In this document: piece by piece, positions 3,676-64,000 of the stretch
How positions within the stretch are numbered: the first letter of the stretch is position 1
Layout: each line of letters opens with the position of its first letter
Origin: an uncultured virus (IMG/VR IMGVR_UViG_3300006924_000001)
Lineage: Duplodnaviria; Heunggongvirae; Uroviricota; Caudoviricetes
Virus record (IMG/VR): IMGVR_UViG_3300006924_000001
Direction: 5' to 3' (one strand)
DNA: 64,000 bases
The notes under the pieces: model-generated
Told to the model about the DNA's origin: nothing
The model's database searches: none
The model's input: only the letters and a program-made list of their open reading frames with translations
Position numbers and translations under genes: made by a program

Positions 3676-4005
3676 ATGGCGCAGTACCCGCTAACCGAAG
3701 CCCTAAAGGAAAATCTAATTCTCAACACCATTAGAATGATGGATGTTGACGAGGATGTCAGCCCGAATTGCGAAACAGAATTTCAATTCGATTATGGTGG
3801 CCGAACAATTGTTGCTTCGGTTAAAATTACCGAAATACCAAAGGACAAATTGTACAGGGACCGAGATTGGTTGTATAACGAGTATGTCACCAAAGGTAAA
3901 ACGCTCAAGGAAATAGCATCAATTTTCAATATCACCCCGATGAGTATTCACCAGTGGCTCGTGAAATTGAACATCCCCGCACGACCTCGTGGTCGCCGTC
4001 AATAA
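3676..4005 (+). CDS. HTH DNA-binding protein
   Basis: YRDRDWLYNEYVTKGKTLKEIASIFNITPMSIHQWL is a typical archaeal-virus HTH; own TATA box at ~3646. Confidence 0.75.
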   Translation: MAQYPLTEALKENLILNTIRMMDVDEDVSPNCETEFQFDYGGRTIVASVKITEIPKDKLYRDRDWLYNEYVTKGKTLKEIASIFNITPMSIHQWLVKLNIPARPRGRRQ

Positions 4006-4407: not shown

Positions 4408-6647
4408 TTGTTGAACAGAAAGGTAAGAACGATGTGGTCGTTCGCTATCGTGACAAAGACGGTAAGCGACAGGAAACAGTAATCAAGAAGTATCTTCCGT
4501 ACTGTTATGTTAGTGAAGAAGACTCAAAGTACATTCACGGTTATACTAAGACCAACGGATTCACAGGAGTCTTTGGTACGCCCCTCGTGAAAATTGAGGG
4601 TTATTCCACTTGGGACATTCGTGAAATCAACAAGACTGGTCACACTTGGGAAGGGAACATCCCCTTCACAAACCAAGCATTGAGTGCAAGAGTTAAGGCT
4701 GGCGAAAAGCCGTTTGATTCCTACAACCACAGGGTTTGGTACCTTGACGGTGAGTGGAAAATCAACAGTGGCGAAATCACAATGCTCTCGGTCTATGATT
4801 CTTTTACCGAAAGACTATACTCGTGGGCTGTGATGCCTAAAGGTGCTTATTGGGATTCTCTCGGCAAAGGGAAATACAACATGCTCAAGGGTGAAGACGG
4901 TAAGGAGTACCACTACGAAACACCCGTCATTCTCTTCGACACCGAGGCTGAACTCTTGTCGCATTTTGTATCTTTCATGCGGAAGCATGACCCCGACATT
5001 ATCACCGGTTGGTATGTCACGGGAGCCGACATAAAGCAAATCATCGAACGCTGTGGCAAAACCGGCGTTCGTGCCAGCACTATGTCGCCAATGAACAAGT
5101 TACGCTACGAGTACAGGGATTGGTCGCAACCAATCGTTGGTCGGAACATTATCGACTTGCGCCTCGCATTCCCCAAGTTGTACGAGTTGAAGAATGGCAA
5201 GTTACCGAACTACAAGTTGGATGATGTTGCTTGGGAAGCATTGGGGGAAAAGAAAGTCGAACTCAAGGATGGTCACGATACCTACTACACTGACCCCGTT
5301 CTGTATCTTCACTACAACCGCATAGATGTTGAACTCCTTCCGAAGTTAGACAAGATGGTGAACGCTTTGGAATACTTCATCGCTGTACAGCACATTGCTC
5401 AATGCGAGATTCGCTCGACACCACACATCACGCAGGTTTTCTCGTGCCTTGCTTTGAGTGACCCACAGTTCAAAAAACAATTGCCAAGTGAGCCACGATT
5501 TCAAGCCGAGGCGTATGAAGGTGCGATTGTCATGGATGGTGAGAAAGGTGTGTATGACGCCATTGGTATTTTTGACATAAAAGCAATGTACCACAGCAAT
5601 GTCGCTTTGCATAACATTTCATGGGACACACTCTCCGAGGGTGGGAAGGACTGTGGGAATGGGACTTGTTTCTCACAGGATGAGAAGGGGTTGTTGGTGC
5701 GACAAATGGACAAAATGACTGTCTTGCGTGACCACTACAAGGGCTTGATGAAGGAGGCTACGAGCGAAGCAGAAAAGGTCCGATACGACGCCTTGCAGTA
5801 CGCTACAAAGTCCCTCGTCGCTTCGATGTACGGTGTGGCCGGTGACAGCAAATACGGGCTGTACCACCCCGAAATCGCTTCGGCCATCACATACACCTCT
5901 CGACAGACCTTGCTGAAATTAGCATCCGTCGCAGAAGACATGGGTCACCCTGTTGTGTACGGTCACACGGACTCGGTGATGTGTCAAGTACATAGTCCCG
6001 AAGAAGGAATGCAATCGGTCATTGAAATGAACAAGCGTATGTACCCAATCATTGTGCAATTTGAAAAGTGGTCGCAGTCATTCCTACTGATGGAGAAGAA
6101 TCGGTACGCCGGTTTGGTGACTTGGACCGATGGGGAACTTCACGAACCCAAGCGTTATGTTAAGGGAATAGAAATGAAGCAATCAAGGATGCCGAGCGTG
6201 ATGAAGAATGCGATGGGTCTTGTCATTGACTCGGTGCTAAAGCACTACTGCTCCGATGATGTGAACGCTGAACTGACTGAACTTATTGAAGGCGTCATGG
6301 AGAAGAAGTTCCCCGATGAAGACTTGTGTATGAAGGGTAAATTGACGAAGGACTTGAAGCAATATACGAGCGTTGCTGGCCCAGCCGCAGGCGCACAGTG
6401 GGCCAACCGTGTGTTGGGTAAAGGTTACCGAGGTGGTGATTATTTCCTTTGTAGTATTGATAAGGATGGGAATTACATAGCCTTTGACAACCCATCCGAA
6501 ATCGAAGGTATTGCCGAGATTGGTCGGCAGGTCATGGTCGAACGCTTCATCATCAACAAGGTTTTACCTTATTACAAAGTGGCTAATTGGGACATAGAAC
6601 CGTTGCACCGAGCCATGAACGGTAAGTCGAAGGTACAGTGGTTCTAA
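4404..6647 (+). CDS. polB: Family B DNA polymerase with 3'-5' exonuclease
   Basis: ExoI YLDGE, ExoIII YNRID, motif A FDIKAMYHS, motif B KSLVASMYG, motif C YGHTDS, KNRYAG, VKGIE. Confidence 0.95.
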   Translation: MIVEQKGKNDVVVRYRDKDGKRQETVIKKYLPYCYVSEEDSKYIHGYTKTNGFTGVFGTPLVKIEGYSTWDIREINKTGHTWEGNIPFTNQALSARVKAGEKPFDSYNHRVWYLDGEWKINSGEITMLSVYDSFTERLYSWAVMPKGAYWDSLGKGKYNMLKGEDGKEYHYETPVILFDTEAELLSHFVSFMRKHDPDIITGWYVTGADIKQIIERCGKTGVRASTMSPMNKLRYEYRDWSQPIVGRNIIDLRLAFPKLYELKNGKLPNYKLDDVAWEALGEKKVELKDGHDTYYTDPVLYLHYNRIDVELLPKLDKMVNALEYFIAVQHIAQCEIRSTPHITQVFSCLALSDPQFKKQLPSEPRFQAEAYEGAIVMDGEKGVYDAIGIFDIKAMYHSNVALHNISWDTLSEGGKDCGNGTCFSQDEKGLLVRQMDKMTVLRDHYKGLMKEATSEAEKVRYDALQYATKSLVASMYGVAGDSKYGLYHPEIASAITYTSRQTLLKLASVAEDMGHPVVYGHTDSVMCQVHSPEEGMQSVIEMNKRMYPIIVQFEKWSQSFLLMEKNRYAGLVTWTDGELHEPKRYVKGIEMKQSRMPSVMKNAMGLVIDSVLKHYCSDDVNAELTELIEGVMEKKFPDEDLCMKGKLTKDLKQYTSVAGPAAGAQWANRVLGKGYRGGDYFLCSIDKDGNYIAFDNPSEIEGIAEIGRQVMVERFIINKVLPYYKVANWDIEPLHRAMNGKSKVQWF

Positions 6648-7321: not shown

Positions 7322-7350
7322 TTTAGTCGCCTATCCCAACCTTTATATGC
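7322..7350 (+). promoter_or_regulatory. TTTAGTCG box + BRE/TATA promoter (probably leaderless)
   Basis: TTTAGTCG, then CCAACCTTTATAT; ATG 28 nt after the TATA box. Confidence 0.65.
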
Positions 7351-35044: not shown

Positions 35045-35210
35045 AACGCTATATTGCGGTTTTTGTTTATTCTTTTATTGTTTCATAGACCTGTAAGAAA
35101 AAGTAGTATTAACCTCTTAACTTAATCTAAGCAGTGGGGGGCATTAAACACCTATGAAGTAATAAAAGAATTAGGTGTTTGGCCTTTCAGTGTATCGTTT
35201 ATTTCTTTTT
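35045..35210. repeat. Palindromic AT-rich element, copy A (candidate origin)
   Basis: Imperfect inverted repeat; homologous to the reverse complement of 53585-53745. Confidence 0.75.
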
Positions 35211-35271
35211 GTTGTGATGAAATCAATAGAAAGATAAATGTTCATAAAGGGCTTCCACATGGCTTAGAGTA

Positions 35272-37028: not shown

Positions 37029-38519
37029 ATGTCAAGAATTAAATCAGCGTTGGCTTTTGAACGAGCAAGAAATGATGTATCATACTTTTACCGATGGCTT
37101 GGGTATGCTTGGGGTACTCACATTGGGGAATGGATGGATATTTACAGTGACAGGAAGGGAGCGCATGTTCACCGTGTTTGTATTATTGCTCCGAGAAGTC
37201 ACTCGAAGAGTACGACGCTTGGTGTAAAGTTATTGCACATGTGTCTTTTTCAAAAGTTCAACGGAAAGCCTATGGACATTTGGTTGTTTTCTGCGAGTCA
37301 AGATACGGCAGTACGACGATTAGCAGAAATCCGAAAGGATTTGACAAGCCATAAAGAACTGGCTCGATACATTGACCCTAAGAAGGGTGGTAAAAAGGAA
37401 CTATGGCTTAACAATGGCGCAGTCATTCGATGCTCTTCTGTTGGCAGTGCTATTCGTGGTGACCACCCTGCTGTCGTAGCACTTGACGATGTGTTGCTCG
37501 ATGCTAAAAAAGAACTTAACAATGAGCAGTTAAGGCATTGGCTACGAAAGGTTGTCATGCCGATGCTCGACCCCGGTGCATTCCTATATTGTGTTGGTAC
37601 GCCGATGAGCATGGCTGATTTGTACCACACTGAAATGCTTGACAATGACCAATGGAAGACTGGTGTTTGGTCTGCTATTCCCAATTGGGATGAAAAGAAA
37701 CATGAACCGGAAAAGTTAGAAGCCCTTTGGCCGGAGTTCCGACCGTTGGACTTTTTGCTTGAGCAGAAGAAGGTGACAGGCGAGTTAGAATTTGCACAAG
37801 AATTTCTATGCAAAGTCATTGATGATGAGGCGGCTGTGTACCCTCGTAAATTTACACGAGCCAATATGGACTTAGAGCAGGTGTTTGACAGTGAAAAGCG
37901 TGGTGGGTGCAAGTATGTTGTTGGTTTTGACCCGTCACAAGGATTAGGGAAAGACTATTCTGTAATGGTACTGGTTCGCCAAGAATCCGATGGCTCTTTG
38001 TGTGTAGCAAACATTTGGAGAAGGAACGACTTCTCCCCCGACAGACAGGCTGACATGATTGGTGAGTGGTGTAAAAAGTACAGCGCACCTCTTGCGGCAG
38101 AAGATGTAGGATTTCAGCGATTGTTCAAGTCCTTGTTAGAGGCTAAGGGTATCGGTGTTGAGTATCGAGAGTCAAAGGTTAGCAACAAAGGCTTGAAGCA
38201 GGGATTGCTAAACCGATTAAGAGTGTGGTTTGAACGAGGCAAGATTCAATTCCCTTATGGCGACGATTCAACAAGGCGAGTCGTCAATGAAATGTTAGAA
38301 GAATTAGAGTCACATGCTTGGAAGTCCGGCGACATTGTTGATACCGGCAAACACAACGACTTGGTAATGGCTTTGGCACACGCTATCGACCAATTCTCGT
38401 TTAAATCCGATACTGTTCCATTTGCTGGCCGGTCTATGGGTAAAGGCGCATGGCAAGGTGGCAAGTCAAAAAGCCGTGGTCGTGGCGGTATTTTCCGAGC
38501 CGTCAGTAGGCGTTTATAA
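37029..38519 (+). CDS. terL: Terminase large subunit
   Basis: APRSHSKST Walker A, VALDD Walker B, VGTP, FAQEF, GFDP, DYS and HNDLVMA. Confidence 0.95.
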   Translation: MSRIKSALAFERARNDVSYFYRWLGYAWGTHIGEWMDIYSDRKGAHVHRVCIIAPRSHSKSTTLGVKLLHMCLFQKFNGKPMDIWLFSASQDTAVRRLAEIRKDLTSHKELARYIDPKKGGKKELWLNNGAVIRCSSVGSAIRGDHPAVVALDDVLLDAKKELNNEQLRHWLRKVVMPMLDPGAFLYCVGTPMSMADLYHTEMLDNDQWKTGVWSAIPNWDEKKHEPEKLEALWPEFRPLDFLLEQKKVTGELEFAQEFLCKVIDDEAAVYPRKFTRANMDLEQVFDSEKRGGCKYVVGFDPSQGLGKDYSVMVLVRQESDGSLCVANIWRRNDFSPDRQADMIGEWCKKYSAPLAAEDVGFQRLFKSLLEAKGIGVEYRESKVSNKGLKQGLLNRLRVWFERGKIQFPYGDDSTRRVVNEMLEELESHAWKSGDIVDTGKHNDLVMALAHAIDQFSFKSDTVPFAGRSMGKGAWQGGKSKSRGRGGIFRAVSRRL

Positions 38520-38935
38520 AGAAGGTTTTGAAAAATTTTACTGCGGAATTTTCGGGGTACTAAGCAACGCTGTGGGGGTGGCGGGCGGCGATTTTTGGAG
38601 TCAAGACGCCGCAGAATCGACCCCACCCCGAACCCATGAATGCCGTTTCTTGGTGTCATACATGGCCTCTACGGGCCGTTCGTGGGTGCTGGGCGGCATG
38701 GGTACCACCGCAGGGAAAGGCGTCGCTTGTAGGGGGGTCTATGGCGTTTTTTTGGTTCGGCGTTTGGGCCGGTCGGTGGCGGCACCTGCTCAACAGGCTC
38801 GCAGTGCATCGAATAGAACGAAAAAAATCATCCCGCTGGACTGCTCCACGACCGGCACGGGATGAGAACCGGTCGCTGTTGTCGTTTCGTTTGCTTGTCA
38901 ATACCTCCGCAGTGTGTCGTTTTTCGTCTGTCAGT

Positions 38936-40120
38936 TCAAGCCTTGAAGCGTCGCTCAAGAGCGATGCCGAGCAGGGTCACCTGTTGGCCGTCAATGGCCA
39001 CCTCAAAGGAGCATGGGACCACATCGTAGTCCATCTTTGACCACTTACCGCCTTGAATGCGGGTGCTGAATCGGCTTGCATCGCCGTCTTTTGCCAGCAT
39101 GTCGGCCATCAATTGAGCGGTGGTGATTTGGCCACGGTGAGCCATCACAACACGGTTGAACAGTTGCTTGGTGATGCGGCACGACTTGAAGTGAACTCGG
39201 TGGCCGCCGTACACCTTGAGGCCGCCCTGCGTCTTGTTCAGCACTGGAAGGTGCAATGTGACGCTGTTCGGGTCGAGGTTGCGCTTGGGGTTGGCACAGT
39301 TCGGGCAACAGTTGCCACGGCTGACCTGCTGGTGTCCCCATGCCTTTTGGCACACCTTGCAATACCGTTGAGCGGCGTGGCCGTTGTTGGTCCAATCAAG
39401 CACCGTAGAGGTGTTGATGGCAAGGTGAGCCTTGAGGCAATCCACGCCATCGCCTTGAAGGGCGTATTGGTGGACAGTGGAGCCTTCAACACGGTTGCGA
39501 GTGTCAAGGGCAAGGTCCGGCTTGGTGCTGTCTTGAATCTGCTTCAAGGTGTTCATTCCGTCACGAATCAATGCCGCCGAATCGACTGGCACATATCGTA
39601 CTCGGTCGCCTTCCATGAGGCCGAATGCTTGGAGCATTTCGGGGGTGGTGGTCATGAGGTCGAGTTCGACTTCAATGCTGTCCTGTCCACTCTCTTCAAC
39701 GGCTTGGCGGTTGGCTTCTTGGTAGGCCTTGAGGCTGACCAAAGCGGCCAATGCTCGGCGTACTGCTGGCTTGAGAACCAAGTCTGTGGCGTCGAGTTCG
39801 CCGAGGTCGTAGGTTCGTGGTTGCTGGTTTGGTCGGATGGTCTTGACCGGTCGGAATCCGGCGGACTTGATGGCCGCCATACTTGGGTTCTTGATGCCCA
39901 TTTCATCGTTCAGTGCCTTGAGTACCTTTGCTGGTACGGTGTCCTTTGCTTGGTACTTGTTGACCTTCCGAGTCATTGCCCTGTTGGCGTTGCTGTGCTT
40001 TGACACAGCCTCCACCAATGTGGCCATGATAACCTCATGGGGGTTCTCGGTTCCGTTGATGAACTGCTTCATCGTGCTTGCTGGTTGTCCTTGCGTGTTT
40101 GTTTCTTCGCTTGGTTGCAT
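38936..40120 (-). CDS. Hypothetical protein with internal Zn finger (GC-rich, putative earliest gene)
   Basis: GGAGG RBS; CKVC...CPNC; strongly biased codons. Confidence 0.8.
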   Translation of the reverse strand: MQPSEETNTQGQPASTMKQFINGTENPHEVIMATLVEAVSKHSNANRAMTRKVNKYQAKDTVPAKVLKALNDEMGIKNPSMAAIKSAGFRPVKTIRPNQQPRTYDLGELDATDLVLKPAVRRALAALVSLKAYQEANRQAVEESGQDSIEVELDLMTTTPEMLQAFGLMEGDRVRYVPVDSAALIRDGMNTLKQIQDSTKPDLALDTRNRVEGSTVHQYALQGDGVDCLKAHLAINTSTVLDWTNNGHAAQRYCKVCQKAWGHQQVSRGNCCPNCANPKRNLDPNSVTLHLPVLNKTQGGLKVYGGHRVHFKSCRITKQLFNRVVMAHRGQITTAQLMADMLAKDGDASRFSTRIQGGKWSKMDYDVVPCSFEVAIDGQQVTLLGIALERRFKA

Positions 40121-40436
40121 TTGGTTGCCCTCCTGTATCTTAGGCCAGTCAGCCTCTACCCATAAAGGCAACGCCGACTAACCCTTGAAATTCGGCTAAA
40201 TTCGGCCTTTTTGATTTCCGTCGGTCGGCTCGGCACCGGCCCGACAATCGCCCTAAACGGGCTAATTTGGGGGTTTTGATTCATGTTTGAACATGAATCT
40301 GTCATTCTCCCTGTCTAAACGCTGTACTGCGTGACCGATGACCCCTATTTGGCCACCCCAACATGAATGGTTCTTGTTATGGTATCAATTTGATACCACC
40401 CTTCGGTGTAATTGTGGAACCGAGTACCGCCGGTGA

Positions 40437-40482
40437 TACCAAGTACCAACATTGGTACCAAGTACCAACTTTGGTACTAAGT
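40437..40482. repeat. 19-bp tandem repeat TACCAAGTACCAACWTTGG (~2.4 copies)
   Basis: Read directly from the sequence. Confidence 0.85.
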
Positions 40483-40621
40483 GAGAAATTGCACACCGTT
40501 TTTTAGTCGGGACTAAAAACCGAAATCGTTCGCAGAATTTAGTCGGGTGCCAGTGCGATAAAATGCGATTTAGTCGTAGAGTTATCGAAAAAGAAACCCC
40601 TTCAAAAAATCGCTATCGAAA

Positions 40622-40897
40622 TCAAAGAGCCGCTTCACACTTTGCGATTGTCGCCTTTAGTTCGGAAATACCGTTCATGTATGCGATTATACCAGCAGGG
40701 CTAAGTTGCCACGCTTTCCCAATTGGCGAATACTTGGCATCTTTGCCTGTGAACACCTCGGCACATATTTTCTTCGTTTTTTCATCGGAAGGGAACACTC
40801 CTGTGCTAACCCAAGTAGCGAACTCTTCCTCTTTCAATCTCAATTCTTCTTTCAATTTTTCAATCAATTTTTCAATCATGCTTTTCATCTCCGCCAT
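40622..40897 (-). CDS. Hypothetical coiled-coil protein
   Basis: GGTGA RBS; TATAAA upstream. Confidence 0.7.
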   Translation of the reverse strand: MAEMKSMIEKLIEKLKEELRLKEEEFATWVSTGVFPSDEKTKKICAEVFTGKDAKYSPIGKAWQLSPAGIIAYMNGISELKATIAKCEAAL

Positions 40898-41134
40898 TCA
40901 CCGGTTAAGTACCTGTAATCGGTACAAAGGGTGTTGCCCTTTTATACCCTCCGGAGTGGCATTCTCCTTTATTTAGTCGCGACTAAATGACACTACACTA
41001 AGCAGTATTTAGTCGGCACAATTTGACCAAAAATAGGATTTTCGATTAGTCGGTATCGAAATTTTAGTCGAGGGGTGGCCCCCGCCTGCAAGCGCACAGA
41101 CGAGGGCCGGAGGGTGAGCGGTGGTGGGTGCTGG

Positions 41135-41521
41135 TCAACCTTGTGCCTTTTCCCACGGTGAACCGACCGGTTCGGTGTAGTATGCCACCGCTTGCTCATT
41201 TCCAATCTCGTGCATCACAATGTCGGTGTGTGGACACATGATGATGAGGCGGTCAAGGGTTGCGTCGATGAGGTATCGAGGGACATAGGTCGGGACAGCG
41301 ATGTCGGGTGTGGCGGTGTAGGAGGCGGCGGCGGTGGAGTAGCCATGCGAACCAAGTAGGGTTTCGATGGTGTCGCTGAATTGGTTGAGTAGGTCGTCAA
41401 CACTCGGCGAGTTGTGGTCGAACACACACGAGTAGTACATCTGTACCACGGTGTCGAGAACCACAGGGTTCACGGGGTAGGTCGGAAGGCGGGCTTCGGG
41501 GGTTATGGTTTCTTGTGCCAT
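41135..41521 (-). CDS. Hypothetical protein
   Basis: Own promoter ACCGATACCTTTAAG ~25 nt upstream (leaderless). Confidence 0.7.
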   Translation of the reverse strand: MAQETITPEARLPTYPVNPVVLDTVVQMYYSCVFDHNSPSVDDLLNQFSDTIETLLGSHGYSTAAASYTATPDIAVPTYVPRYLIDATLDRLIIMCPHTDIVMHEIGNEQAVAYYTEPVGSPWEKAQG

Positions 41522-41917
41522 GTTTGTACCATAGTCACTCTCCCCTTAAAGGTATCGGTGATAGGCCGTTTTAGTCGGCCACAGGTAGCCCCTAATTGGG
41601 GGCCGCAGGCCCAATAACCGACTAAAGCGAAGGGTAACTAATACCCTTTAGTCGCGACTAAATGAGAAGGTTTGTTATTTTTTTAGTCGTTATTTGAGTA
41701 ATTTTAATTTTTTAGTCGAAATAAAAAAGACAAAAGATTTAGTCGAAAACCAAACCTATCGAAAAATTTAGTCGATAAAAAATTAGTCGAGAAATTAGTC
41801 GGTAAATTGTTTTAGTCGGGGTAAGAGAAAAGTATATAAGGGGTAGCCCAGCCCCCCGCCGAAGCGGGGTTCGGGCGGCTCCGGCATGATGCCGTACTTA
41901 GTCGTTGCTTTAGTCGC

Positions 41918-42121
41918 TCAAACAATCATTGTCCACTTGAACTGGATGAACCGGTGTTCCTTAAGGTTCGTGAACACTGTGACTGTGAAGGTTTGGAATG
42001 ACTCGCCGGTGCATTCGTCATGCTCGGTGGTCAAGCGGCCTGTGGGATAGTACCTCGGAAGGTCGTTCCATTGCTCTTCGTTTTCGTCTGTCAGTGCTGT
42101 GCTAATAATCATGTAGTCCAT
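41918..42121 (-). CDS. Small acidic hypothetical protein
   Basis: GGAGG RBS; box+TATA promoter at 42151-42183. Confidence 0.7.
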   Translation of the reverse strand: MDYMIISTALTDENEEQWNDLPRYYPTGRLTTEHDECTGESFQTFTVTVFTNLKEHRFIQFKWTMIV

Positions 42122-42150
42122 GTTTTTGCCTCCATATGTTGCTCACCTCG

Positions 42151-42183
42151 CTACTATTTAAGGTTATGGAGGGGCCGACTAAA
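42151..42183 (-). promoter_or_regulatory. TTTAGTCGG box + TTAAATAGTAG promoter
   Basis: Box starts 22 bp before the TATA box. Confidence 0.75.
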
Positions 42184-43092
42184 CGCCGATTTTGTGTCAG
42201 CAATGATAGTCTTACTTAGTCGCGACTAATTTATTACCCTCCCGTCGGCGCATTCGGGAAGCGGCACCCCACTCCTATGAGTATGTCGGGGTATATAACC
42301 TTTGCTTTGAGGCGAATTTTTAGTCGGGACTAATTTTATGGAGCGCAGTCGTGCTTTTAGTCGGTATTTGGCTTCGTCGGCTTCCAGTAGGGGGGAGTAG
42401 CGACCCTGTTCACTTTAACCGACTAAACGCTGTACTGCGGACTGATACTTTAGTCGAAATTTAAAATCTAGTCGCGACTAAAAAAGTGGGGCGCAGTCAC
42501 CTGTTTAGTCGTAATTCAGCGTTGGTATGCCACGACCTCCGACACGACGCCGGTGCCTCTAAACACCGACTAAACGAGGTACTGCGTGGCAGAAATTTAG
42601 TCGGGACTAAACAGTGATACGGGGTGCGTTTAGTAGCGACTAGAAAAATGTCTTTCAGTACAGCGTTTAGTCGAATTAAATCAGAATAAGAGTGGACTCC
42701 CCTACACAGCATCGAAAATTTTTAAGTGCGACTAAACGGTGTACTGCGTGGTGCGGGATTAGTCGGGACTAAAGGCATCACTGCGTTTTGGGGGGCGACT
42801 AAATGTTATTGACTACAAAAAAAGCGAATAACGACTAAAGTGACTAAGCATTTTCGGTCAATTTTGCAACATCGAATTTAGTCGAAAACCCAAAAGTTCA
42901 AAAATCGCCGAGAAATTTAGTCGTTATCAAATTGTTGCAAAATCGCCAAAACCACAAAAAAATTTAGTAGCGACTAACCCGCCAGCCGTTGCACCCGCTC
43001 CGCCGGTTTCTGTGGGTTTTATTTAGTCGAAATTATTTTCAGCCGAAAAATCGACAGGCCTCTCTAATAATACACTACGCACAAGATAAGCG

Positions 43093-43125
43093 TTTAGTCG
43101 GGGTACCGAAAGGCTTAAATAGTAG
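43093..43125 (+). promoter_or_regulatory. Early promoter (box-BRE-TATA)
   Basis: TTTAGTCGGGGTACCGAAAGGCTTAAATAGTAG. Confidence 0.8.
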
Positions 43126-43165
43126 TACATGTATGGGTAACTAAGACCCGAAGGAGATACCCCCA

Positions 43166-43318
43166 ATGAACCAACAAACCCGAACTGAAACCCTAACCGT
43201 GAAGGGCGTCGCATGTCAAAAGTGCGGTTGCCGAAAATTCCGACCGATAGGCCATTCGCTTGAGAATGTCCGATGTGTCCACTGTGGCACATTCACTTTC
43301 CTATGGGGTGCTGTGTGA
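43166..43318 (+). CDS. Zn-ribbon protein (50 aa)
   Basis: AGGAG RBS; CQKC...CVHC. Confidence 0.65.
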   Translation: MNQQTRTETLTVKGVACQKCGCRKFRPIGHSLENVRCVHCGTFTFLWGAV

Positions 43319-43437
43319 TGAACCAAACCTGTCAGCACTGCGACAAGTCCCACGACGACATCCGTCAAATCAAGGCCATGCACATTGTCCTCTCATGCCC
43401 TCGTTGCCTCGACATTTGGACAGGGAGGGTTCGCTGA
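43318..43437 (+). CDS. Zn-ribbon peptide (39 aa)
   Basis: TGATG coupling on both sides; CQHC...CPRC. Confidence 0.6.
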   Translation: MNQTCQHCDKSHDDIRQIKAMHIVLSCPRCLDIWTGRVR

Positions 43438-44882
43438 TGGTCACCGTCACTTCCCGCCTGTTCTCGCCGTACCTCCGCAGTCGTGCCGAGTCCTACCTCA
43501 AAAAGTTCGCCAAGCGAGCCAAAACCCACACGCCGGTCGAATGGCGCATTGACGAGAAGACGCTCGATGGAAAAGTATTCCGGAAAAACAAATCCGGCCC
43601 CTTCGTCGCCACCGACGGCTCCCGCTACTCGCTGGCAAAAACGCCTCGCCTCACCCGACTCACCGGAACCTCTCTCACGCACCAGCAACTCACCGCTCTC
43701 AAACATCGGCGACCGCTTCCACCGGAAACCTTCGACGCTCGGTATCTTCCGCACCCGATGCTTCAAATTGTCGTGGACTACGAGCCACCCAGCGATTGGT
43801 CCGTGGTCGCCGTCTGCGACCCAGCCGACCCCAACAATCCGACCGGCTCCCCTGCGATTTGGACCCCGATGTTCGGCGAAAAATTGCCCGACAAAATCGG
43901 TAGGCGGAAACGCCCCGAAAAATTCCTCGACCACTGCGACCACTGCACCAGCGGTCCACGGCGGCGAAAACGCACCCTCATCCTCCGCTCGCCGAAAGGC
44001 TCAACGAAAATCGTTGGCTCGACCTGTCTGTTTTCCTACACCGGTATCAGTCCCGAAGACCTCGAAAAATTGATGAACATCGCCACTCGCCCACCTCCCG
44101 ATGAGGCCGGTGGTGGCTACTTCGGCGGTCGTGCCTACACGACCACACACCCGACCTCGGTCCTCAACGATTTGGTGGCGGCATACGCTCTCAAAAATCG
44201 GGACTATCGCTCCGGCATGGGTTCGATGCTTCTCAACGGCGTTGCCGAGTTCCACGGCGATGAAGTCGCTGTCGGCATTGTCCACATGCAAACGAAAAAG
44301 TTCACCGAATCGTTCCGCATCGCAAATGTGTGGCCGAAACGGTTCAAGGGTCGCCAAAAGATGGAAGACCTCGCTTATCTCGTGGAACACACGCCCGACT
44401 CTCAAATGCTCTCGCTCTCCTTCGCCTCGGCCATCGAAGCGATGAAAGACGACCGGCCCAGCGAATTTTCCCGAAAAGTTCTCTCGGTTGCCGAGTCCGG
44501 CATGGTGTACAAGAAGACTTGGAATGTGTACGCCGGTGCCTCATCACGATGGCTCAAGACCGTTCACGCCGAATGGTTCGATGCTGTCGAAGAGGCGAAG
44601 CCAAAGGAAACCACCAAACGCCTCCCTCATGGTGTGGGCGAGCGCATCACGGTGGAATGCCGATTCGTTGAGCAACGCATCACACGCAACGGCTACACGC
44701 TCACGGAATTTGTCACCGAAAAGAACGAGGCCATCGTATCTTTCGGCAAATTCGATTACAAACGCTATGGCCTCAAACCGAACCAGCGCATCACGCTCAC
44801 GGGTACCGTCAAGCGACACGGCTCCTTCCGTGACAACGAATCCACAACCCTCAACCGGTTGACCGTGGAGGCGAAAGAGTGA
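43437..44882 (+). CDS. Viral protein with a CDHC...VGSTC motif and C-terminal OB-fold
   Basis: GVGERITV...ITLTGTVKRH...TTLNR OB-like tail; GGAGG RBS. Confidence 0.7.
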   Translation: MVTVTSRLFSPYLRSRAESYLKKFAKRAKTHTPVEWRIDEKTLDGKVFRKNKSGPFVATDGSRYSLAKTPRLTRLTGTSLTHQQLTALKHRRPLPPETFDARYLPHPMLQIVVDYEPPSDWSVVAVCDPADPNNPTGSPAIWTPMFGEKLPDKIGRRKRPEKFLDHCDHCTSGPRRRKRTLILRSPKGSTKIVGSTCLFSYTGISPEDLEKLMNIATRPPPDEAGGGYFGGRAYTTTHPTSVLNDLVAAYALKNRDYRSGMGSMLLNGVAEFHGDEVAVGIVHMQTKKFTESFRIANVWPKRFKGRQKMEDLAYLVEHTPDSQMLSLSFASAIEAMKDDRPSEFSRKVLSVAESGMVYKKTWNVYAGASSRWLKTVHAEWFDAVEEAKPKETTKRLPHGVGERITVECRFVEQRITRNGYTLTEFVTEKNEAIVSFGKFDYKRYGLKPNQRITLTGTVKRHGSFRDNESTTLNRLTVEAKE

Positions 44883-45406
44883 ACAGAATTTTACGGGAAC
44901 ATCAAATCGAACAGTCCAACAACCCGGATAATCCAAACCAAAACAAGTGCGCCCAAGCGGTCGCAAAATGGTTGGGTGTTGCCGACAAGGTGCGGTACCT
45001 GCACAGCATTCACGATGTAGTGCGAGCCGCTCGCACGAGATTCACAGTCCGCAGTCGCTTGAGCGAAGCCAAGAAATTATTACCGAAAAAGAAATTGACG
45101 GTTTCACAATTCCGAAAAATCGCACAGGACATTTCCGACAAGGCGTATGGCGGCGAAGTCCGCAAGGCCACATACTATTGTCCCAACACTCAAAAGTCTT
45201 GGATTGAAGAAACCCGCACCTGCTACAACCCTGCGGCGTTCATCATCCGTACCCCAAACCACGCCATCGGCCTCGACAGTACAGGCAAGGTCGTGGTTGA
45301 TACCGCTCCCCGAAAGTCCGACAGGCGAACCGTCACCCATGTGTACATGGTGTGCTGGGACAAGCCAACGAAGACCGAACTCTTTGGAGGTTTTGTCGAA
45401 GAATGA
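44879..45406 (+). CDS. Hypothetical protein, possible papain-like Cys-His-Asp fold
   Basis: NKCAQAVA...NHAIGL...VVDT. Confidence 0.55.
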   Translation: MNRILREHQIEQSNNPDNPNQNKCAQAVAKWLGVADKVRYLHSIHDVVRAARTRFTVRSRLSEAKKLLPKKKLTVSQFRKIAQDISDKAYGGEVRKATYYCPNTQKSWIEETRTCYNPAAFIIRTPNHAIGLDSTGKVVVDTAPRKSDRRTVTHVYMVCWDKPTKTELFGGFVEE

Positions 45407-45417
45407 GGGTAGTAGTG

Positions 45418-45450
45418 TTTAGTCGGGTCACCGAAACCTTTAAATAGTAG
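45418..45450 (+). promoter_or_regulatory. Early promoter (box-BRE-TATA)
   Basis: TTTAGTCGGGTCACCGAAACCTTTAAATAGTAG. Confidence 0.8.
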
Positions 45451-45525
45451 GGCGATAATCTCTATTTGTAAGCGGACAAAGCCGACAACACACTGAAACA
45501 AACAAAAAACATGGAAGGAATTATT

Positions 45526-45918
45526 ATGACGAAAAAAATACACATACCAGCAAACATTGAAGACGAATTTTGGGAGGTCACAGACCCCACCCAATTTGTG
45601 AGAACATACAACGCCCTGCGACGACGACGGGGACAGATTGCGATGGTGCCACGGCTACACGCCACGCCTCTCAAGAACAGCGTACAAATCAACTTGGGTA
45701 CCGGCTACTCCGCCGACGGCTATTGGTTTGACATGACGAACAAGCAGACCGAAGAACTGCTCACCAAACACGCCAACGCACAACCGCATCGGTTCCGTGA
45801 CTGCGTTTCAACGCCAGCCGTTCGATTCAAGATTTCCCGATGGCACATTTCTGTTTGGTGCTATCACGAAACCGACAGCACACGCAACAAGGACAACAAC
45901 TGGGGTGGGGAAGAATGA
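45526..45918 (+). CDS. Hypothetical protein
   Basis: First ORF after the promoter; alternative start at 45511. Confidence 0.7.
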   Translation: MTKKIHIPANIEDEFWEVTDPTQFVRTYNALRRRRGQIAMVPRLHATPLKNSVQINLGTGYSADGYWFDMTNKQTEELLTKHANAQPHRFRDCVSTPAVRFKISRWHISVWCYHETDSTRNKDNNWGGEE

Positions 45919-46409
45919 GCGCACCCAAAGTGTACATTGCTTGCCTCGCATCCTACAACAACGGGATTCTCCGTGGCGCATGGAGAAGTGCCGACGACTT
46001 GCAACGAGGTTGGCGACACCCCAACGGGTGGATTGAAGGCGACGGAGAATGGGCGATTCACGATTATGACGGCGTTCCCAACATCGGCGAAAATCCCGAC
46101 ATTGACTTCCTCATCGAAGTCATGCACTGCATCGAAGAACACGGCGACGGATTCTTCCGATGGTTTGAGAACGATTCATGGAACATGTCGCACCTCAAAG
46201 GCGAACTTTCCGAGCGGTTCCAAGAACAATACAGGGGAGAATACGATTCACCCAAAGCGTTCGCCGAAGAATTTGCCAACGAAGTCGGTTGGCTTTCAAA
46301 CCACAACAACAACCCACTGTTCCGCTATGTGGACTTTGATTGGTATTGGAAAGCCGACCTGCGTCACTCTTTCACCTTCTCTCACGGCCATGTGTGGTGT
46401 TGCGAATGA
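45915..46409 (+). CDS. ardA: ArdA-family antirestriction (DNA mimic) protein
   Basis: KVYIACLASYNNG.L.G.W, EWAIHDYD, YRGEYDS, FAEE and YVDFD; acidic. Confidence 0.88.
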   Translation: MSAPKVYIACLASYNNGILRGAWRSADDLQRGWRHPNGWIEGDGEWAIHDYDGVPNIGENPDIDFLIEVMHCIEEHGDGFFRWFENDSWNMSHLKGELSERFQEQYRGEYDSPKAFAEEFANEVGWLSNHNNNPLFRYVDFDWYWKADLRHSFTFSHGHVWCCE

Positions 46410-47897: not shown

Positions 47898-47930
47898 TTT
47901 AGTCGGCCTACCGAAAGACTTAAATAGTAG
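47898..47930 (+). promoter_or_regulatory. Early promoter (box-BRE-TATA)
   Basis: TTTAGTCGGCCTACCGAAAGACTTAAATAGTAG. Confidence 0.8.
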
Positions 47931-48026
47931 GAAGGATTAGTTAATTTGTAGGCGGAACAAGCCGACAAGCCGACAACGCACTACACCAAACCCAAAAAAC
48001 AAATGAAAAAAACGGAGATGAAAAAT

Positions 48027-50956: not shown

Positions 50957-50990
50957 TTTAGTCGGGCCACCGGTACCTTTAAATAGTATG
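50957..50990 (+). promoter_or_regulatory. Early promoter (box-BRE-TATA)
   Basis: TTTAGTCGGGCCACCGGTACCTTTAAATAGTA. Confidence 0.8.
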
Positions 50991-51048
50991 ACAATGTACT
51001 TAATTTGTAGGCAGACAACCCGACACACCCAAAACAGGAGAGATACAC

Positions 51049-53589: not shown

Positions 53590-53745
53590 AACGCTACACT
53601 GCGAGCCTGTTTTCTAATTCTTTCATTACTTCATAGGTATTTCAGTAAAGGCTTCCTATCTTAGTTAATACTTCTTTTCTTAAACCTCTATGAAACAAAA
53701 AAAGAATTAACACATTTGGGCGCAGTACAGCGTTTATTTCTTTTT
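53585..53745. repeat. Palindromic AT-rich element, copy B (candidate origin)
   Basis: AAACGCTACACTGCG...CGCAGTACAGCGTTT arms around an AT-rich core. Confidence 0.8.
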
Positions 53746-53803
53746 CGGATTCTCAAATCAACAAAAACAAAGCCCTTATAACCCTACATACCCACCACAA
53801 GAT

Positions 53804-54220
53804 ATGGGCAAGCGAAACAACAACCGACTGGCGGAGAGGGTATGGTCATTCTTGATTAACCACGACGACGCCATGACCACCACATCTATCCACAAGCACC
53901 TCACCAATGTGTACGGTGTTCGTGACATACCAAAGCAACAGACTTTGACCCAAGTCCTTCTCCAATCTCGTATGTTCAAGAGGGTCGGATGGTTCAACGA
54001 GTCCACCAACCAAACCCATCCCTTCACCGGAAGTATGAGCGCACTGAACCGAGCCACCGGCATTCCAAGCACCAACCTTGTGTGCATCTTAGAGGCCCGT
54101 ACAATGGAAGAAGTATGCAAACCCTACCTCGACCCCACTGCTTCACCTCTTCGCCGCTTAGACCGTATGCCAGCGTTTGTACGAAGGCATGTCGAAACCC
54201 TACGAGGTGAGTCCCAATGA
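53804..54220 (+). CDS. Winged-helix protein (DUF3860-like?)
   Basis: MTTTSIHKHL...DIPKQQTLTQVL...FKRVG; leaderless promoter at ~53775. Confidence 0.65.
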   Translation: MGKRNNNRLAERVWSFLINHDDAMTTTSIHKHLTNVYGVRDIPKQQTLTQVLLQSRMFKRVGWFNESTNQTHPFTGSMSALNRATGIPSTNLVCILEARTMEEVCKPYLDPTASPLRRLDRMPAFVRRHVETLRGESQ

Positions 54221-54975
54221 AGATGATGCAAACCTTCCGTGACATTGACATTTTCCTCAACGACGGCACTAAAAAGATTAACGCCACAAATACTTTCATC
54301 TATGTCGAAGGTGAGTACGGTTTCATCCCTCTCATTTGTGGCAAGGCCGTTGAAGCGAAGGGTTACGAGATTGGCGAGATGGCATCGAGGTATCAAAATG
54401 TCGAATCGTTCAACCGCTTCCCAAAACCAAACCTCCCAACATGGCGAATCACCCAAGTCAATGAAGATACTGTTTTTATCGCTATAACTAATTGGTTCCC
54501 GAACAGTGACGGACAAGGAGAGCCGAACCCCACCCTTTGGAGTAACTCGTACCCAGCCATGAAGTCCTTGCTCACTTGGCTACAACAGAACGGATGCAAG
54601 AAGGTGACCACCTTGACCAGCATGAACATCCTCGACGCAGAACAGAACCCTTCGGTCCATGTGCATGAGTCGCATCACGGTTGGCAATCCAAGTACGACG
54701 AAGACCACGAATCATACCTCGCCCTCCCTGCTTGGTCATTCCCGTGGCTCGCAGACAAAATGGGTATGTACGGTCGATGCGTTGTCACCAGTCAAGACGA
54801 AGGACAGTTCATTGACTACGACGCACTTGCCAAGACACAGATTTGGTTGGCATTGCAAGGTATCGAATGGGACACCGATGTTATGGGCGCAACAATCAAG
54901 ATGTTGAATAGTGTCGAAACGGAACTTTCAAGTCAAGGCTTCGATGAGGATGGTTCGATGGGGGAGTTCCAATGA
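54217..54975 (+). CDS. Divergent PAC2 (proteasome assembly chaperone)-like protein
   Basis: Motif order G.YG.I..I, LL.WL...G.KKV.TL, GM.G.CVV, IDYDA, GI.WDTD. Confidence 0.5.
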   Translation: MKMMQTFRDIDIFLNDGTKKINATNTFIYVEGEYGFIPLICGKAVEAKGYEIGEMASRYQNVESFNRFPKPNLPTWRITQVNEDTVFIAITNWFPNSDGQGEPNPTLWSNSYPAMKSLLTWLQQNGCKKVTTLTSMNILDAEQNPSVHVHESHHGWQSKYDEDHESYLALPAWSFPWLADKMGMYGRCVVTSQDEGQFIDYDALAKTQIWLALQGIEWDTDVMGATIKMLNSVETELSSQGFDEDGSMGEFQ

Positions 54976-56306
54976 CGCAGATTATTGACCGAATACTTAA
55001 CTTCGCAAAGGCGAACTATTATGTCGATGTTGAAGACAAAATCCCAATCTTTGTCACTTCGATTGGCGCACACATTTTCAACGCAATCAACAAGTGTAGC
55101 CGATGCGACTTCGACCCGTTGCACAACGCAGACTTCAACATCCCCACCTGCCCCTTGCGACATTCCTTCGCACCGATTTACACGCCAATGTCACAATTGG
55201 CAGACACACGAGTTCACATCTTGATGCGTGGTGAGAAGGGTTCCGGTAAAAGTATGCTCATCAATATGTTTCTCGCAGAAGGCACCGGACTACTTTACAC
55301 CCCAACGGCGTTTGAAGATGGTTCCGGATTCCGGACAATGCTCGGCCCTAACTCAATCACCGAAGCCGGTATGTTCGGCTCGGTTGACGAAGATGGAAAC
55401 ATCGTCGGTCGCCCTCTCGCTCGTGACATGTGTGGCGGATTCCTCGGCTTTGAAGAATCGTCTTCGCTCACCGATGCAAACAAGAAAGACCACAGCGTTG
55501 ACATGAAGAACCAGTTACTTACCTCCCTCGACAACGGTCGTGTTGAGAAGGCCATGCGAAGCGGAAGGGTTCGTTACAATACTCGTTATACTATGTGGGG
55601 AGGTACTCAACCTTCACGCCTTGAGATGGAGTCCGGTCTTGACCGAAGACTGTTCATCATCGACATTGAGATGAGTCCGGAGAAAGAGGCGGCGTACAAG
55701 ACGGCGCAACACAAGCAGGTCAACATGACCCGTGAAGACCGAGCAATTCTTGCCGAAGAAGTAATCCACATTCGGAATTGGATTAACACACGGATGCTCG
55801 ACGCAATCTTCGACCCGCCGAGCGGAGTTCACTTTTCCGACGAGTTAGGTGCTTGGTTGGACCGACCCGACATTCGTTCTTTTGAGTCCGACCTGTTCCG
55901 AAGAATCGCAATCGGCTACGCCATGATGTGTGACAATTGGGTGGGCAACCAAGTCCTCAAGATTGCTCTTGACGAAAAATTACTCAAGATTCTTGAGGCC
56001 GCTCTTGTCATGCGACGGTCGGTTATGGATTCCGACGCACGACTCATCAAGGATGCGTTTTGGATGCAAGACATTACCAAGTCCACCTTGCTCAAGGAAA
56101 TCGCTCGTATCATCACCCGTGGTGACTACACAGCGGCGAAGCGATGGATTGACGACAACCTCGTCAACCAACCGTGGTACTGTGAATATACCCCCAAGAC
56201 TAAGGGGCGAGGTCGCAAGGGTGTCATGTGTCGAATCGGTACCATGACCGACCCAGCACAAGTCGTACAGAAGTGGGGAGGTGAATCTGATGAGAAGTCA
56301 GCGTGA
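54972..56306 (+). CDS. MCM-like AAA+ helicase lacking the N-terminal domain
   Basis: GEKGSGKS, S.TEAGM.GS, GGFLGFEE, LL.SLD.G.V and SGLDRR arginine finger. Confidence 0.75.
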   Translation: MTQIIDRILNFAKANYYVDVEDKIPIFVTSIGAHIFNAINKCSRCDFDPLHNADFNIPTCPLRHSFAPIYTPMSQLADTRVHILMRGEKGSGKSMLINMFLAEGTGLLYTPTAFEDGSGFRTMLGPNSITEAGMFGSVDEDGNIVGRPLARDMCGGFLGFEESSSLTDANKKDHSVDMKNQLLTSLDNGRVEKAMRSGRVRYNTRYTMWGGTQPSRLEMESGLDRRLFIIDIEMSPEKEAAYKTAQHKQVNMTREDRAILAEEVIHIRNWINTRMLDAIFDPPSGVHFSDELGAWLDRPDIRSFESDLFRRIAIGYAMMCDNWVGNQVLKIALDEKLLKILEAALVMRRSVMDSDARLIKDAFWMQDITKSTLLKEIARIITRGDYTAAKRWIDDNLVNQPWYCEYTPKTKGRGRKGVMCRIGTMTDPAQVVQKWGGESDEKSA

Positions 56307-58101: not shown

Positions 58102-58506
58102 ATGAGCGCAACGAATCGTCGTGTGCGACGAGCCATTCTCGAAATACTTTGGGAAGGCGGACCAATGACGAAAGAAGATGTTGCCGTCGCTCTCGGAGAA
58201 AAGAAAGGGGTGAACCACATCCCTTCGCCTCACTCGCTTTCCGCACTACTGTGCAAGTCCCATTCGGTTATCACGGTCGGCAAGCGCAAGGTCGAGAATA
58301 TCCTCGGCCACCGTTCGTCGCATTCGTTATACGACTTGGACCGTGAAGTAGTATTGTCGAAAGACGAAATCAAGTTCATCCGTGAACCTTCGACCATGAC
58401 TCCAACGGAGCGCAGACAAGCCGTGAAGTGTGTGGCTTGTGGTCGAACTCGCATCTTTCCTCCGAACTCCGAGGAATGTTTGCATTGTGGTCGAATATCC
58501 GTTTAG
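58102..58506 (+). CDS. Winged helix (DUF3860-like?) plus C-terminal Zn ribbon
   Basis: GPMTKEDV...HIPSPHSLSALL.K....TVG; CVAC...CLHC. Confidence 0.65.
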   Translation: MSATNRRVRRAILEILWEGGPMTKEDVAVALGEKKGVNHIPSPHSLSALLCKSHSVITVGKRKVENILGHRSSHSLYDLDREVVLSKDEIKFIREPSTMTPTERRQAVKCVACGRTRIFPPNSEECLHCGRISV

Positions 58507-58530
58507 TCGGGCCACCACAACCTTTATAAG
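58502..58530 (+). promoter_or_regulatory. Box-BRE-TATA promoter
   Basis: TTTAGTCGGGCCACCACAACCTTTATAAG. Confidence 0.75.
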
Positions 58531-63418: not shown

Positions 63419-64000
63419 ATGTCAAATGTAGTTATGGGTGAGCAGGCGCAAGCCGCTCTCTTGGAAGCAATCAACCTTGTCGCTGATGCTGTTGAAGGTA
63501 CGCTGGGACCGCAAGCGAGAACTGTTCTCGTCACGCATCCCGAACGACCACCGACGGTGCTGAACGACGGCGTGAAGATTGTTTCCTCCGTCAAGTCCGA
63601 AAAGCCTGCGGTACAAGCCGCAGTGCAATTGTTCCGACAGGCCGCACTTGAGGCTCAACAGGCTTCCGGTGACGGTACTACAACGGCAACACTACTTGCT
63701 CGTGCAATCTGCAACGCATACGCCGACCATCCCAACAAAGTCCGAGCCGCCCAAGAAATCGCTCAATTCACAGACGCAACCGTTGCATACATCGAAATGC
63801 AAAGTGAAGAGATAGACTTTGGTGCGCTCACTGACGAAGATGAGTGGGATGAGTTAGAACAGCGGTTAAAGTTCGTGGCTACTGTTGCCGCTAACAACGA
63901 CGAACCTCTCGGTGAACTGGTTGCTGAAATCTTCACCGAACTCGGTCCCGACGCACTTGTCAATCTCAAGGTCGGCTCTCTCGACCACACGATTTGGTCA
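63419..64000 (+). CDS. Chaperonin (Cpn60, GroEL-like), 3' end outside the window
   Basis: My translation: ADAVEGTLGP, NDGVKI, GDGTTTAT, VATVAANND. Confidence 0.92.
   Translation, partial: MSNVVMGEQAQAALLEAINLVADAVEGTLGPQARTVLVTHPERPPTVLNDGVKIVSSVKSEKPAVQAAVQLFRQAALEAQQASGDGTTTATLLARAICNAYADHPNKVRAAQEIAQFTDATVAYIEMQSEEIDFGALTDEDEWDELEQRLKFVATVAANNDEPLGELVAEIFTELGPDALVNLKVGSLDHTIWS

Follow-up and report, generated by a model that had tools for sequence, protein, structure and literature searches.

An amplified eight-base promoter box in a putative magrovirus and its lineage-specific counterparts among relatives

Short words repeated along a replicon are familiar from the multi-site fields of global regulators, such as the omega heptads of pSM19035, the ParR iterons in parC, the baculovirus hr elements with IE1 and papillomavirus E2, and from iteron origins that co-evolve with an initiator, such as lambdoid O/ori, plasmid Rep/iterons and the ori/crr octamers of phage P4. 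Here, we analyze a dense array of an 8-bp box, TTTAGTCG, that lies between the large terminase gene and the early gene block of an uncultured tailed virus (IMG/VR record IMGVR_UViG_3300006924_000001; the whole 64,000-nt stretch is hereafter "the window"). Two described systems come closest to it. The first is halovirus HF2, for which the available portion of the report describes seven class I and two class II intergenic repeats, one per promoter, with measured promoter activity (PMC8707807). [quoted passage not shown] The second is the promoter-early stem-loop (PeSL) of T4-type phages, in which sigma-70 promoters are joined to a terminator hairpin within hyperplastic regions (PMC2839356).

Counted on both strands, exact TTTAGTCG occurs 42 times in the 64,000 bases of the window, relative to a mean of 1.81 (standard deviation 1.33, maximum 6) in 100 dinucleotide-preserving shuffles, none of which reached 42. 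Thirty-four of these copies fall within 40502-43100, in both orientations, and eight lie elsewhere; the original prediction, made by eye, of about 40 copies in 2.6 kb is thereby supported and is far above chance. The 7-mer TTAGTCG is found 51 times in the window, 5.7 being expected, and 43 of these are at 40175-43100. A sequence logo of the 54 TAGTC sites of the array confines the information to TTTAGTCG plus its palindromic partner. All eight head-to-head palindromes of the form TTAGTCG(C/G)GACTAA that had been listed beforehand are present (40502, 40972, 41647, 42215, 42319, 42467, 42596 and 42758), three of them as perfect TTTAGTCGCGACTAAA or one base off, and two more, degenerate ones lie at 42629 and 42963. 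The run of evenly spaced single boxes was also recovered, at 41682 (first given as 41681), 41711, 41738 and 41767, with spacings of 29, 27 and 29 nt. The best reading of these patterns is a putative half-site, TTTAGTCG, and a putative dimer site consisting of the 16-bp palindrome TTTAGTCG(C/G)GACTAAA.

Outside the array, the box is rare and occurs mostly at promoters, as had been suspected. Five of the eight outside copies (7322, 45418, 47898, 50957 and 58502) precede a TATA-like box by 19-22 nt, start to start; the other three (23434, 50414 and 53102) are not placed in this way. For the TATA sequence TTAAATAG the register is exact: at all five copies in the window a box starts 22 nt upstream, and four of the five have ACC at +4 after the box. 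More broadly, a box is present at seven of nine matches to the TATA pattern in the window. Four of the TTAAATAG promoters head plus-strand operons (boxes at 43093, 45418, 47898 and 50957), the fifth (42176, minus strand) heads a gene for a 67-aa protein, and at 7322 and 58502 the box instead precedes CTTTATA(T/A)G. A further case of the same register lies within the array, where the last box of the third cluster (41811) starts 22 nt before TATATAA (41833). Beyond the array the conserved promoter takes the form GT-TTTAGTCGG-N3-ACCGAAA-N2-(C)TTAAATAGTAG. The succession of ACCGAAA and TTAAATA reads as a putative archaeal pair of B-recognition element (BRE) and TATA box, by analogy with euryarchaeal promoters.

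Approximately 15 nt after the TATA box, three of these class promoters also carry TTTGTA(G/A)GC(G/A)G (45465-45475, 47945-47955 and 51004-51014). The core of this downstream element, TTTGTAG, is the array word of two distant relatives, G010 and G011.

Related viruses, which carry our labels where they must be told apart (L002, L005, L011, L024, G002, G005, G007-G013 and others), have arrays at the same place but with different words. The 540-aa protein encoded to the right of the array matched four IMG/VR contigs, three of which carry 48-50 TTAGTCG at the same place, and a search with the box palindrome added two lineages in which the terminase and 411-aa genes are immediately followed by 35 and 57-61 boxes. 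When the array word of each relative was defined as the most clustered 7-mer in its whole record, a clustered word was located between the large terminase gene TerL and the early block in seven of seven genomes mapped (G002, G007, G008 and G010-G013). The word is TTAGTCG in G002 (48 copies); in the dense stretches of the others it is TTAGTCG in G007 (63 copies), ATAGTCG in G008 (24), TTGTAGT in G010 (73), TTGTAGA in G011 (47), TTGGATT in G013 (29) and, weakly and at the contig start, TTTTGTC in G012 (12). The contig of G009 is without an array but starts with the box palindrome, next to the terminase gene. In G010, G011 and G013 the arrays are rows of 7-12 units over 6-8 kb, each unit pairing 2-15 boxes with a small gene that comes after them and is oriented likewise; as read from the cluster map, clusters are upstream of and co-oriented with small genes in 9 of 11 cases in G010 and 6 of 7 in G013.

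A close relative, G005, shows the word changing within an otherwise similar genome. Its proteins are approximately 85% identical overall to those of the window, as is its 540-aa protein (85%), and box-ACCGAAA-TTAAATAGTAG is kept at homologous places in the window, L002/G002 and G005. All five of the G005 class promoters nevertheless carry RATAGTCGC in place of TTTAGTCGG, and the available part of its array holds 18 ATAGTCG and 14 GTAGTCG versus 4 TTTAGTCG. A genome-wide change of the word that leaves the flanking promoter as it was is what an altered specificity of the reader predicts. No G005 protein was found to be closer to G008, which shares ATAGTCG, than to the window; a lone flag on GroEL was an artefact of the incomplete copy in the window.

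Relative to the compact 2.6-kb hub that was first described, the dense sites stand, but the layout is revised to four intergenic clusters, each before a small gene, comparable to the 7-12 clusters of the distant relatives. They lie at 40502-40576, 40972-41070, 41570-41916 and 42176-43100 and are split by minus-strand open reading frames (ORFs) of 91, 128 and 67 aa. This gene-by-gene layout looks like the multi-site promoters of an accessory-gene block and not like one compact platform. The array does sit where transcription diverges, as stated in the original prediction, with the minus-strand ORFs of 411, 91, 128 and 67 aa to the left and the plus-strand block from 43166 to the right (Table 1). 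The leftward and rightward promoters that flank the ORF-poor stretch of the fourth cluster form a 46-nt inverted repeat of each other.

With moderate confidence, we propose that the array is a set of operator/activator clusters, each with several sites, that serve a single DNA-binding protein of probably viral origin, and that its box modules double as recombination joints. The region would be the control DNA of an accessory/early gene block, its four intergenic clusters offering sites to one sequence-specific protein, and a single half-site 22 nt before the TATA box, just upstream of the BRE-like ACCGAAA, would mark the promoters of early and replication operons. Archaeal activators such as Ptr2, GvpE and TFB-RF1 act just upstream of the BRE; by analogy, the box lies where an activator would sit. 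A single factor would then control both divergent main promoters, the dispersed promoters and the small cassette genes jointly. The many sites per cluster would make its occupancy cooperative and threshold-like, and the repeated modules would serve as joints for the gain and loss of cassettes. Because the word is lineage-specific and has changed in concert genome-wide, its reader is most likely encoded by the virus and co-evolving with its sites. The dyad, the 22-nt register and the concerted switch in G005 all fit a binding platform for one protein tied to box promoters, as first suggested; we infer protein binding, activation in preference to repression, and a viral source of the factor.

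Table 1. Positions of the box clusters, box promoters and associated genes in the window
Feature	Position	Strand	Description
Single TTAGTCG	40175-40181	-	7 nt before TATA-like CTTTATGG, upstream of the 411-aa gene (38936-40171)
Cluster 1	40502-40576		Palindrome TTTAGTCGGGACTAAA and two plus-oriented boxes
Cluster 2	40972-41070		Perfect palindrome TTTAGTCGCGACTAAA and three boxes; upstream of the 91-aa gene
Cluster 3	41570-41916		14 TTAGTCG, 8 of them in a plus-oriented run; also the arrangement '< 29 nt >< 28 nt >'
Cluster 4	42215-43029		ORF-poor 0.8 kb; ~23 boxes, 5 palindromes, spacings of 30 and 62-64 nt
Composite sites in cluster 4	42344-42363, 42492-42511, 42654-42673	+	
Composite sites in cluster 4	42420-42439, 42567-42586, 42729-42748	-	
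Island	42245-42311		~67 columns, all but 2 identical in three viruses; contains GGTATATAACC (TATA box) and BRE-like AGCAAAGG on the minus strand
Leftward class promoter	42151-42196	-	Box 42176-42183, TTAAATAG 42154-42161, then GGAGG and ATG of the 67-aa gene
Rightward class promoter, early block	43080-43125	+	Box 43093-43100, ACCGAAA, TTAAATAG 43115-43122, then AAGGAG, ATG 43166
Dispersed class promoter	45418-45447	+	Box, 14 nt, TTAAATAG
Dispersed class promoter	47898-47927	+	Ahead of the DUF932 gene
Dispersed class promoter	50957-50986	+	Box and TTAAATAG
Dispersed promoter	58502-58530	+	Box then CTTTATAAG; overlaps 3' end of TFE-like gene
Dispersed promoter	7322-7349	+	Box then CTTTATATG; near PD-(D/E)XK nuclease gene
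91-aa cassette gene	40622-40897	-	No homologue in 7 related genomes compared; absent from L002/G002 with one palindrome module
128-aa acidic small gene	41135-41521	-	Conserved only in G002, 90% over 106 aa
67-aa acidic small gene	41918-42121	-	75% identical in G002; not found in other genomes
134-aa protein	58102-58506	+	Family core gene, 100 homologue clusters; winged helix and C-terminal zinc ribbon, model pLDDT 91
109-aa protein (HTH109)	3676-4005	+	C-terminal helix-turn-helix, basic tail; beside PolB in every genome having HTH109

The boxes follow a spacing grammar, which we counted over four pooled loci (the window, L002, L011 and L024); the window and L002 are close relatives, so the counts are not independent. 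Twenty-six adjacent pairs are head-to-head with centers 7 nt apart, 27 of the 50 adjacent divergent ('<>') pairs within 110 nt are separated by 29-30 nt, and eight pairs lie 62-64 nt apart. In the recurring module, tandem boxes come after '< 29 nt >< 29 nt >'. Cluster 4 additionally holds six composite sites, in each of which a (C/T)GCAGT-like (CGCAGT-like) word is followed, after 6 nt, by TTTAGTCG.

Degenerate look-alikes of the composite sites, CAGT..CGTTTATTTCTTTTT, occur in two AT-rich intergenic regions (~53715-53750 and ~35190-35225). A second repeat system lies to the left of cluster 1 (~40385-40485) and comprises one palindrome, GGTATCAATTTGATACC, together with a direct repeat, GGTACCAAGTACCAAC, in two copies. 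L002 instead has, at the corresponding place (~5190-5300), four palindromes of the form TTTAGGG-N3-CCTAAA, whose outer arms are shared with the box palindrome.

The genes between the clusters turn over. Beyond G002, no homologue was found for any of the three small genes in the window's array; by contrast, TerL is 61-95% identical in the six genomes covering it. In the single case examined, L002 differs from the window by one missing unit, the palindrome module with its 91-aa gene, and the breakpoints fall within box repeats. Judged by such sequence comparison, the array suggests itself as a place where these viruses may gain and lose accessory genes. Searches of Pfam, PHROGs and PDB sequences with the small array genes and the flanking 411-aa and 540-aa proteins returned only phrog_2319 (unknown function), for the 540-aa protein, and a model of the 411-aa neighbor (mean pLDDT 74) drew neither a Foldseek match (E <= 0.001) nor a VIA match (Z >= 5). 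The acidic proteins of no known family that are encoded inside the array (41135-41521 and 41918-42121) are accompanied by an ArdA anti-restriction gene (45840-46409, +) in the first rightward operons; this combination fits an early, host-takeover or anti-defense block.

Searches for the array outside its family were negative or at chance level. No match to the array was found by blastn in 50,697 phage records, none in an Rfam scan of 39800-43400 at E up to 1, and none to the module CGACTAA-N20-24-TTAGTCGSGACTAA in 185,579 prokaryote genomes. In the same 185,579 genomes the 16-bp palindrome occurs at 59 loci, all of them single sites and none titled archaeon; as the chance estimate is ~70-140, these loci have no bearing either way on a host factor. 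One unrelated bacterial metagenome-assembled genome (CAYQTK01..., L180-L236) carries the palindrome on 15 contigs, mostly within a few hundred bases of the contig end; there it resembles a mobile element's terminal repeat, and nothing visible connects it with the virus. GC-rich hairpins follow two of the clusters (~41071-41130 and ~41843-41880; z-scores of -1.3 to -1.8) and are not found at every module. Folds of six pieces that are conserved or GC-rich have z of +0.17 to -1.81, none exceptional, and a structured-RNA reading was set aside.

Contigs from four public sequencing runs cross the array: 38500-45500 is recovered whole in run X1, which may be the source sample, and in run X2, 39288-45500 in X3 and 38563-43269 in X5. 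No RNA run is listed for this DNA, a blank to which no weight is given. With independent contigs from four runs bridging it, the region is not an assembly artefact, a concern that accompanied the original prediction. Eight of the 11 IMG/VR contigs that bear part of an array start or end inside it (those behind L005, L009-L012, L018, L024 and G009), probably because repeats and cassette polymorphism make assembly hard. The 80-nt promoter piece at 40891-40970 is matched in all four runs, with six differences, by a contig of 164-184 nt with unlike sequence on both sides; the piece therefore also exists in another setting, which may be a variant form of the cassette or a virus related to this one.

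The remainder of the window is that of a tailed virus, presumably of archaea. Pfam matches place portal, tail tube and tape-measure-like proteins in a module on the minus strand at 10-35 kb, and identify TerL (37029-38519), the family-B DNA polymerase PolB, a clamp-loader-like AAA protein, ArdA and DUF932. The top matches of PolB among the 50,697 phage records are haloarchaeal tailed viruses, and a GroEL-type chaperonin gene begins at 63419, in the replication block. The window spans the ends of G002 and G005, and these in turn span the ends of the window; the map is therefore circular or permuted, at ~65 kb, and the window falls short of it by only ~1 kb. Magroviruses are described as viruses of 65-100 kb whose PolB groups with haloviruses and whose replication block contains GroEL in groups B and C (PMC5434244). 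Gene content, PolB, the GroEL-type chaperonin and map size are consistent with an assignment of the window to the magroviruses, viruses of Poseidoniales archaea.

Several observations weigh against the proposal of operator/activator clusters for a viral protein. Should these promoters be immediate-early, an activator encoded by the virus would come too late for them, and the factor could instead be a repressor or come from the host. In none of four arrays (0/4) do the box centers show a global helical period that exceeds a random-position null. Tandem boxes in the window are mostly plus-oriented with the adjoining genes on the minus strand, whereas those of G010 and G013 point with their genes, and the ~23 boxes of the ORF-poor stretch are without a convincing gene and more than a promoter would seem to need. 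The word of G010 and of G011 is confined to the array, the outside copies lying in ordinary coding context; promoter use thus appears to be a trait of the TAGTCG clade alone, and the primary role of the array could lie outside transcription. Finally, no protein was securely identified as the box reader.

Three viral proteins were considered as readers. The 134-aa protein resembles TFIIE-alpha and archaeal TFE-alpha in Foldseek (E of 5e-4 to 5e-2, TM ~0.35), and its predicted structure suggests that the virus may encode its own copy of a general transcription factor. It was set aside as reader because the helix that probably faces the DNA does not vary among 32 homologues, although the word does; the fold of this winged helix-turn-helix and zinc-ribbon protein, moreover, matches TFE/TFIIE-alpha. 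The winged helix-turn-helix-like protein at 53804-54220 was likewise rejected, as its helix differs between the window and G009, which have the same word. The two genes at 53804-54975 (+), the first of which resembles a winged helix, are 73% and 63% identical to those of G002 and 50% and 49% to those of G005; the adjoining 444-aa P-loop protein (54972-56306) evolves much more slowly, at 97% identity to G002 and 94% to G005.

The third protein is HTH109. Its variable helix positions track the word: SIHQ accompanies TTAGTCG (the window, G002, G009, G017 and G020), SIHG accompanies ATTAGTCG (G007), TIYA accompanies AATAGTCGC (G008), AVNQ accompanies TTTGTAGATA (G011) and CINN accompanies TTTGGATTT (G013, G015 and G018), but shared descent confounds this pairing. 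When viral and metagenome contigs were scanned with HTH109, only TTAGTCG-type relatives were found; a homologue of 70% identity known from NCBI is absent from the phage collection, and none was detectable in G010 despite its 73 boxes. Judged by this covariation, HTH109 is a weak candidate for the box reader, perhaps correct and rather more probably not.

A bolder form of the operator/activator proposal is possible, although we regard it as doubtful: each lineage would run its early and accessory genes on a private regulatory code, in which one word is amplified 25-75 times in an enhancer-like field and read by a co-evolving viral protein, the code being swappable between viruses that are 85% identical and insulating co-infecting relatives from one another. 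If true, such insulation would be similar to that of immunity or incompatibility groups and would bear on the coexistence of close viruses in one host population. Under this reading the field could also serve as an origin or tether in the manner of the baculovirus hr elements, which would be the first such case for archaeal viruses.

Of the explanations that depart from promoter control, an iteron replication origin fares best, though we consider it unlikely. Here a fast-evolving viral initiator would bind the boxes, and the promoter copies would reflect an initiator that doubles as a transcription factor. Lineage-specific, concerted repeat words are typical of iteron/initiator pairs (plasmid Rep, lambdoid O), and the words of these arrays share that likeness. 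The array also lies at the divergence of transcription, cluster 3 includes an AT-rich stretch with eight tandem boxes (41680-41820), and fast-evolving genes are found just upstream of the conserved 444-aa P-loop protein. Cumulative GC skew, a check put forward with the original prediction, does peak at the array in the window (42-43 kb), but it follows gene orientation and is therefore not independent evidence of an origin. The sites, however, extend over 2.6 kb in the window, or 6-8 kb in G010, G011 and G013, as 4-12 gene-fronting clusters and not as a compact field beside an unwinding element. No initiator was recognized, searches of Pfam, PHROGs and PDB sequences being blank for the candidates, and transcription, unlike replication, accounts for the exact 22-nt register to TATA.

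Slightly less likely again is a titration sink (sponge) or a tether, whereby surplus boxes hold or buffer the promoter factor, or else keep the genome tethered or partitioned during a carrier state. This idea overlaps with the operator/activator clusters that we prefer, since a region with many sites will always buffer the factor it binds. In its favor, only 3 of the 34 exact array boxes are in promoter register (41811, 42176 and 43093), the arrangement of the ~23 boxes in the ORF-poor stretch is conserved in L002 and L005, and the 30-nt and 62-64-nt spacings suggest a higher-order complex. In distant relatives, however, nearly every cluster precedes a gene, so surplus sites are not general, and the window yielded no partition gene, whether of the ParA/ParB type or another.

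We consider it improbable that the repeats are structural shuffling joints like PeSL and nothing else, that is, homology patches and terminator hairpins for cassette exchange with no dedicated binder. The one cassette indel is bounded by box modules, the array genes are lineage-specific, hairpins follow two of the clusters, and 8 of 11 array-bearing IMG/VR contigs break inside the array, all of which such joints would accommodate. An 8-bp word is nevertheless too short alone as a recombination substrate, and the hairpin folds are unexceptional. Shuffling also leaves unexplained the TATA register at promoters 2-35 kb away, the dyad with its 7-nt and 29-30-nt spacings, and the genome-wide change of word.

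A pac/cos packaging field, genome terminus or staged DNA-entry stop, suggested by the position of the array ~2 kb from TerL (synteny in 7/7 genomes), by the many contigs that end in it and by ArdA among the first genes rightward, as expected of first-entering DNA, is very improbable given that contigs from four runs cross the array, that the circular or permuted map (the window versus G002 and G005) has no fixed end there, that no small terminase was recognized in the window, and that dispersed promoter copies and gene-by-gene clusters are foreign to pac/cos sites. Thus, among the four functions that the original prediction put forward, the dispersed layout and the circular map disfavor the iteron origin and the packaging signal or terminus, the T5-type injection stop is without support, and the sponge is a possible side effect of the operator/activator clusters.

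Magroviruses rank with the most abundant viruses in surface ocean waters and, to our knowledge, none is in culture. We found nothing on their promoters or repeats in the main texts of the published papers: the founding paper (PMC5434244) contains no mention of promoter, repeat or motif, a 2025 survey contains no mention of promoter, and a literature search for the box returned, among the matches listed, only unrelated primer-type matches. The array offers a testable regulatory grammar, with a promoter class that is recognizable by sequence and a word that defines regulatory lineages, as well as a defined site set for binding assays with synthesized proteins that need no cultured host.

How, then, does this array compare with known systems? 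Like the multi-site fields of global regulators, it uses a short word, direct and inverted, at several promoters of one replicon; in those fields a dimeric protein reads the word to set transcription, and some also act in partition or replication. It differs from them in having a presumably archaeal host with TBP/TFB promoters and sites that are 13-30 nt apart and not contiguous, and RHH (ribbon-helix-helix) omega, ParR, IE1 and E2 were undetected in the window. Similar to iteron origins, it has lineage-specific short repeats in both orientations that change in concert; unlike them, its clusters are dispersed gene by gene over kilobases, it keeps an exact TATA register, and no initiator gene was recognized.

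The two closest systems share more. As in PeSL regions, there is a block of small, non-conserved genes, each with a repeated early-promoter module, and relatives differ by whole units with breakpoints in repeats. PeSL, as described, has no multi-copy short word, whereas in the window the promoters are of the archaeal BRE/TATA type, what is repeated is a half-site of 8 bp, present in 3-25 copies, and hairpins follow two of the clusters. As in HF2, the virus appears to have a private multi-part promoter that is kept in place, its parts being the box, the BRE/TATA pair and a downstream TTTGTAGGCGG-like element. Unlike in HF2, where promoter activity was measured, the promoters here are predicted from sequence, and their upstream word is a dyad, lineage-specific, and amplified to ~45 copies with 3-25 per intergenic region. 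What is new relative to both HF2 and PeSL is a short dyad word that is amplified 25-75 times and that differs by lineage.

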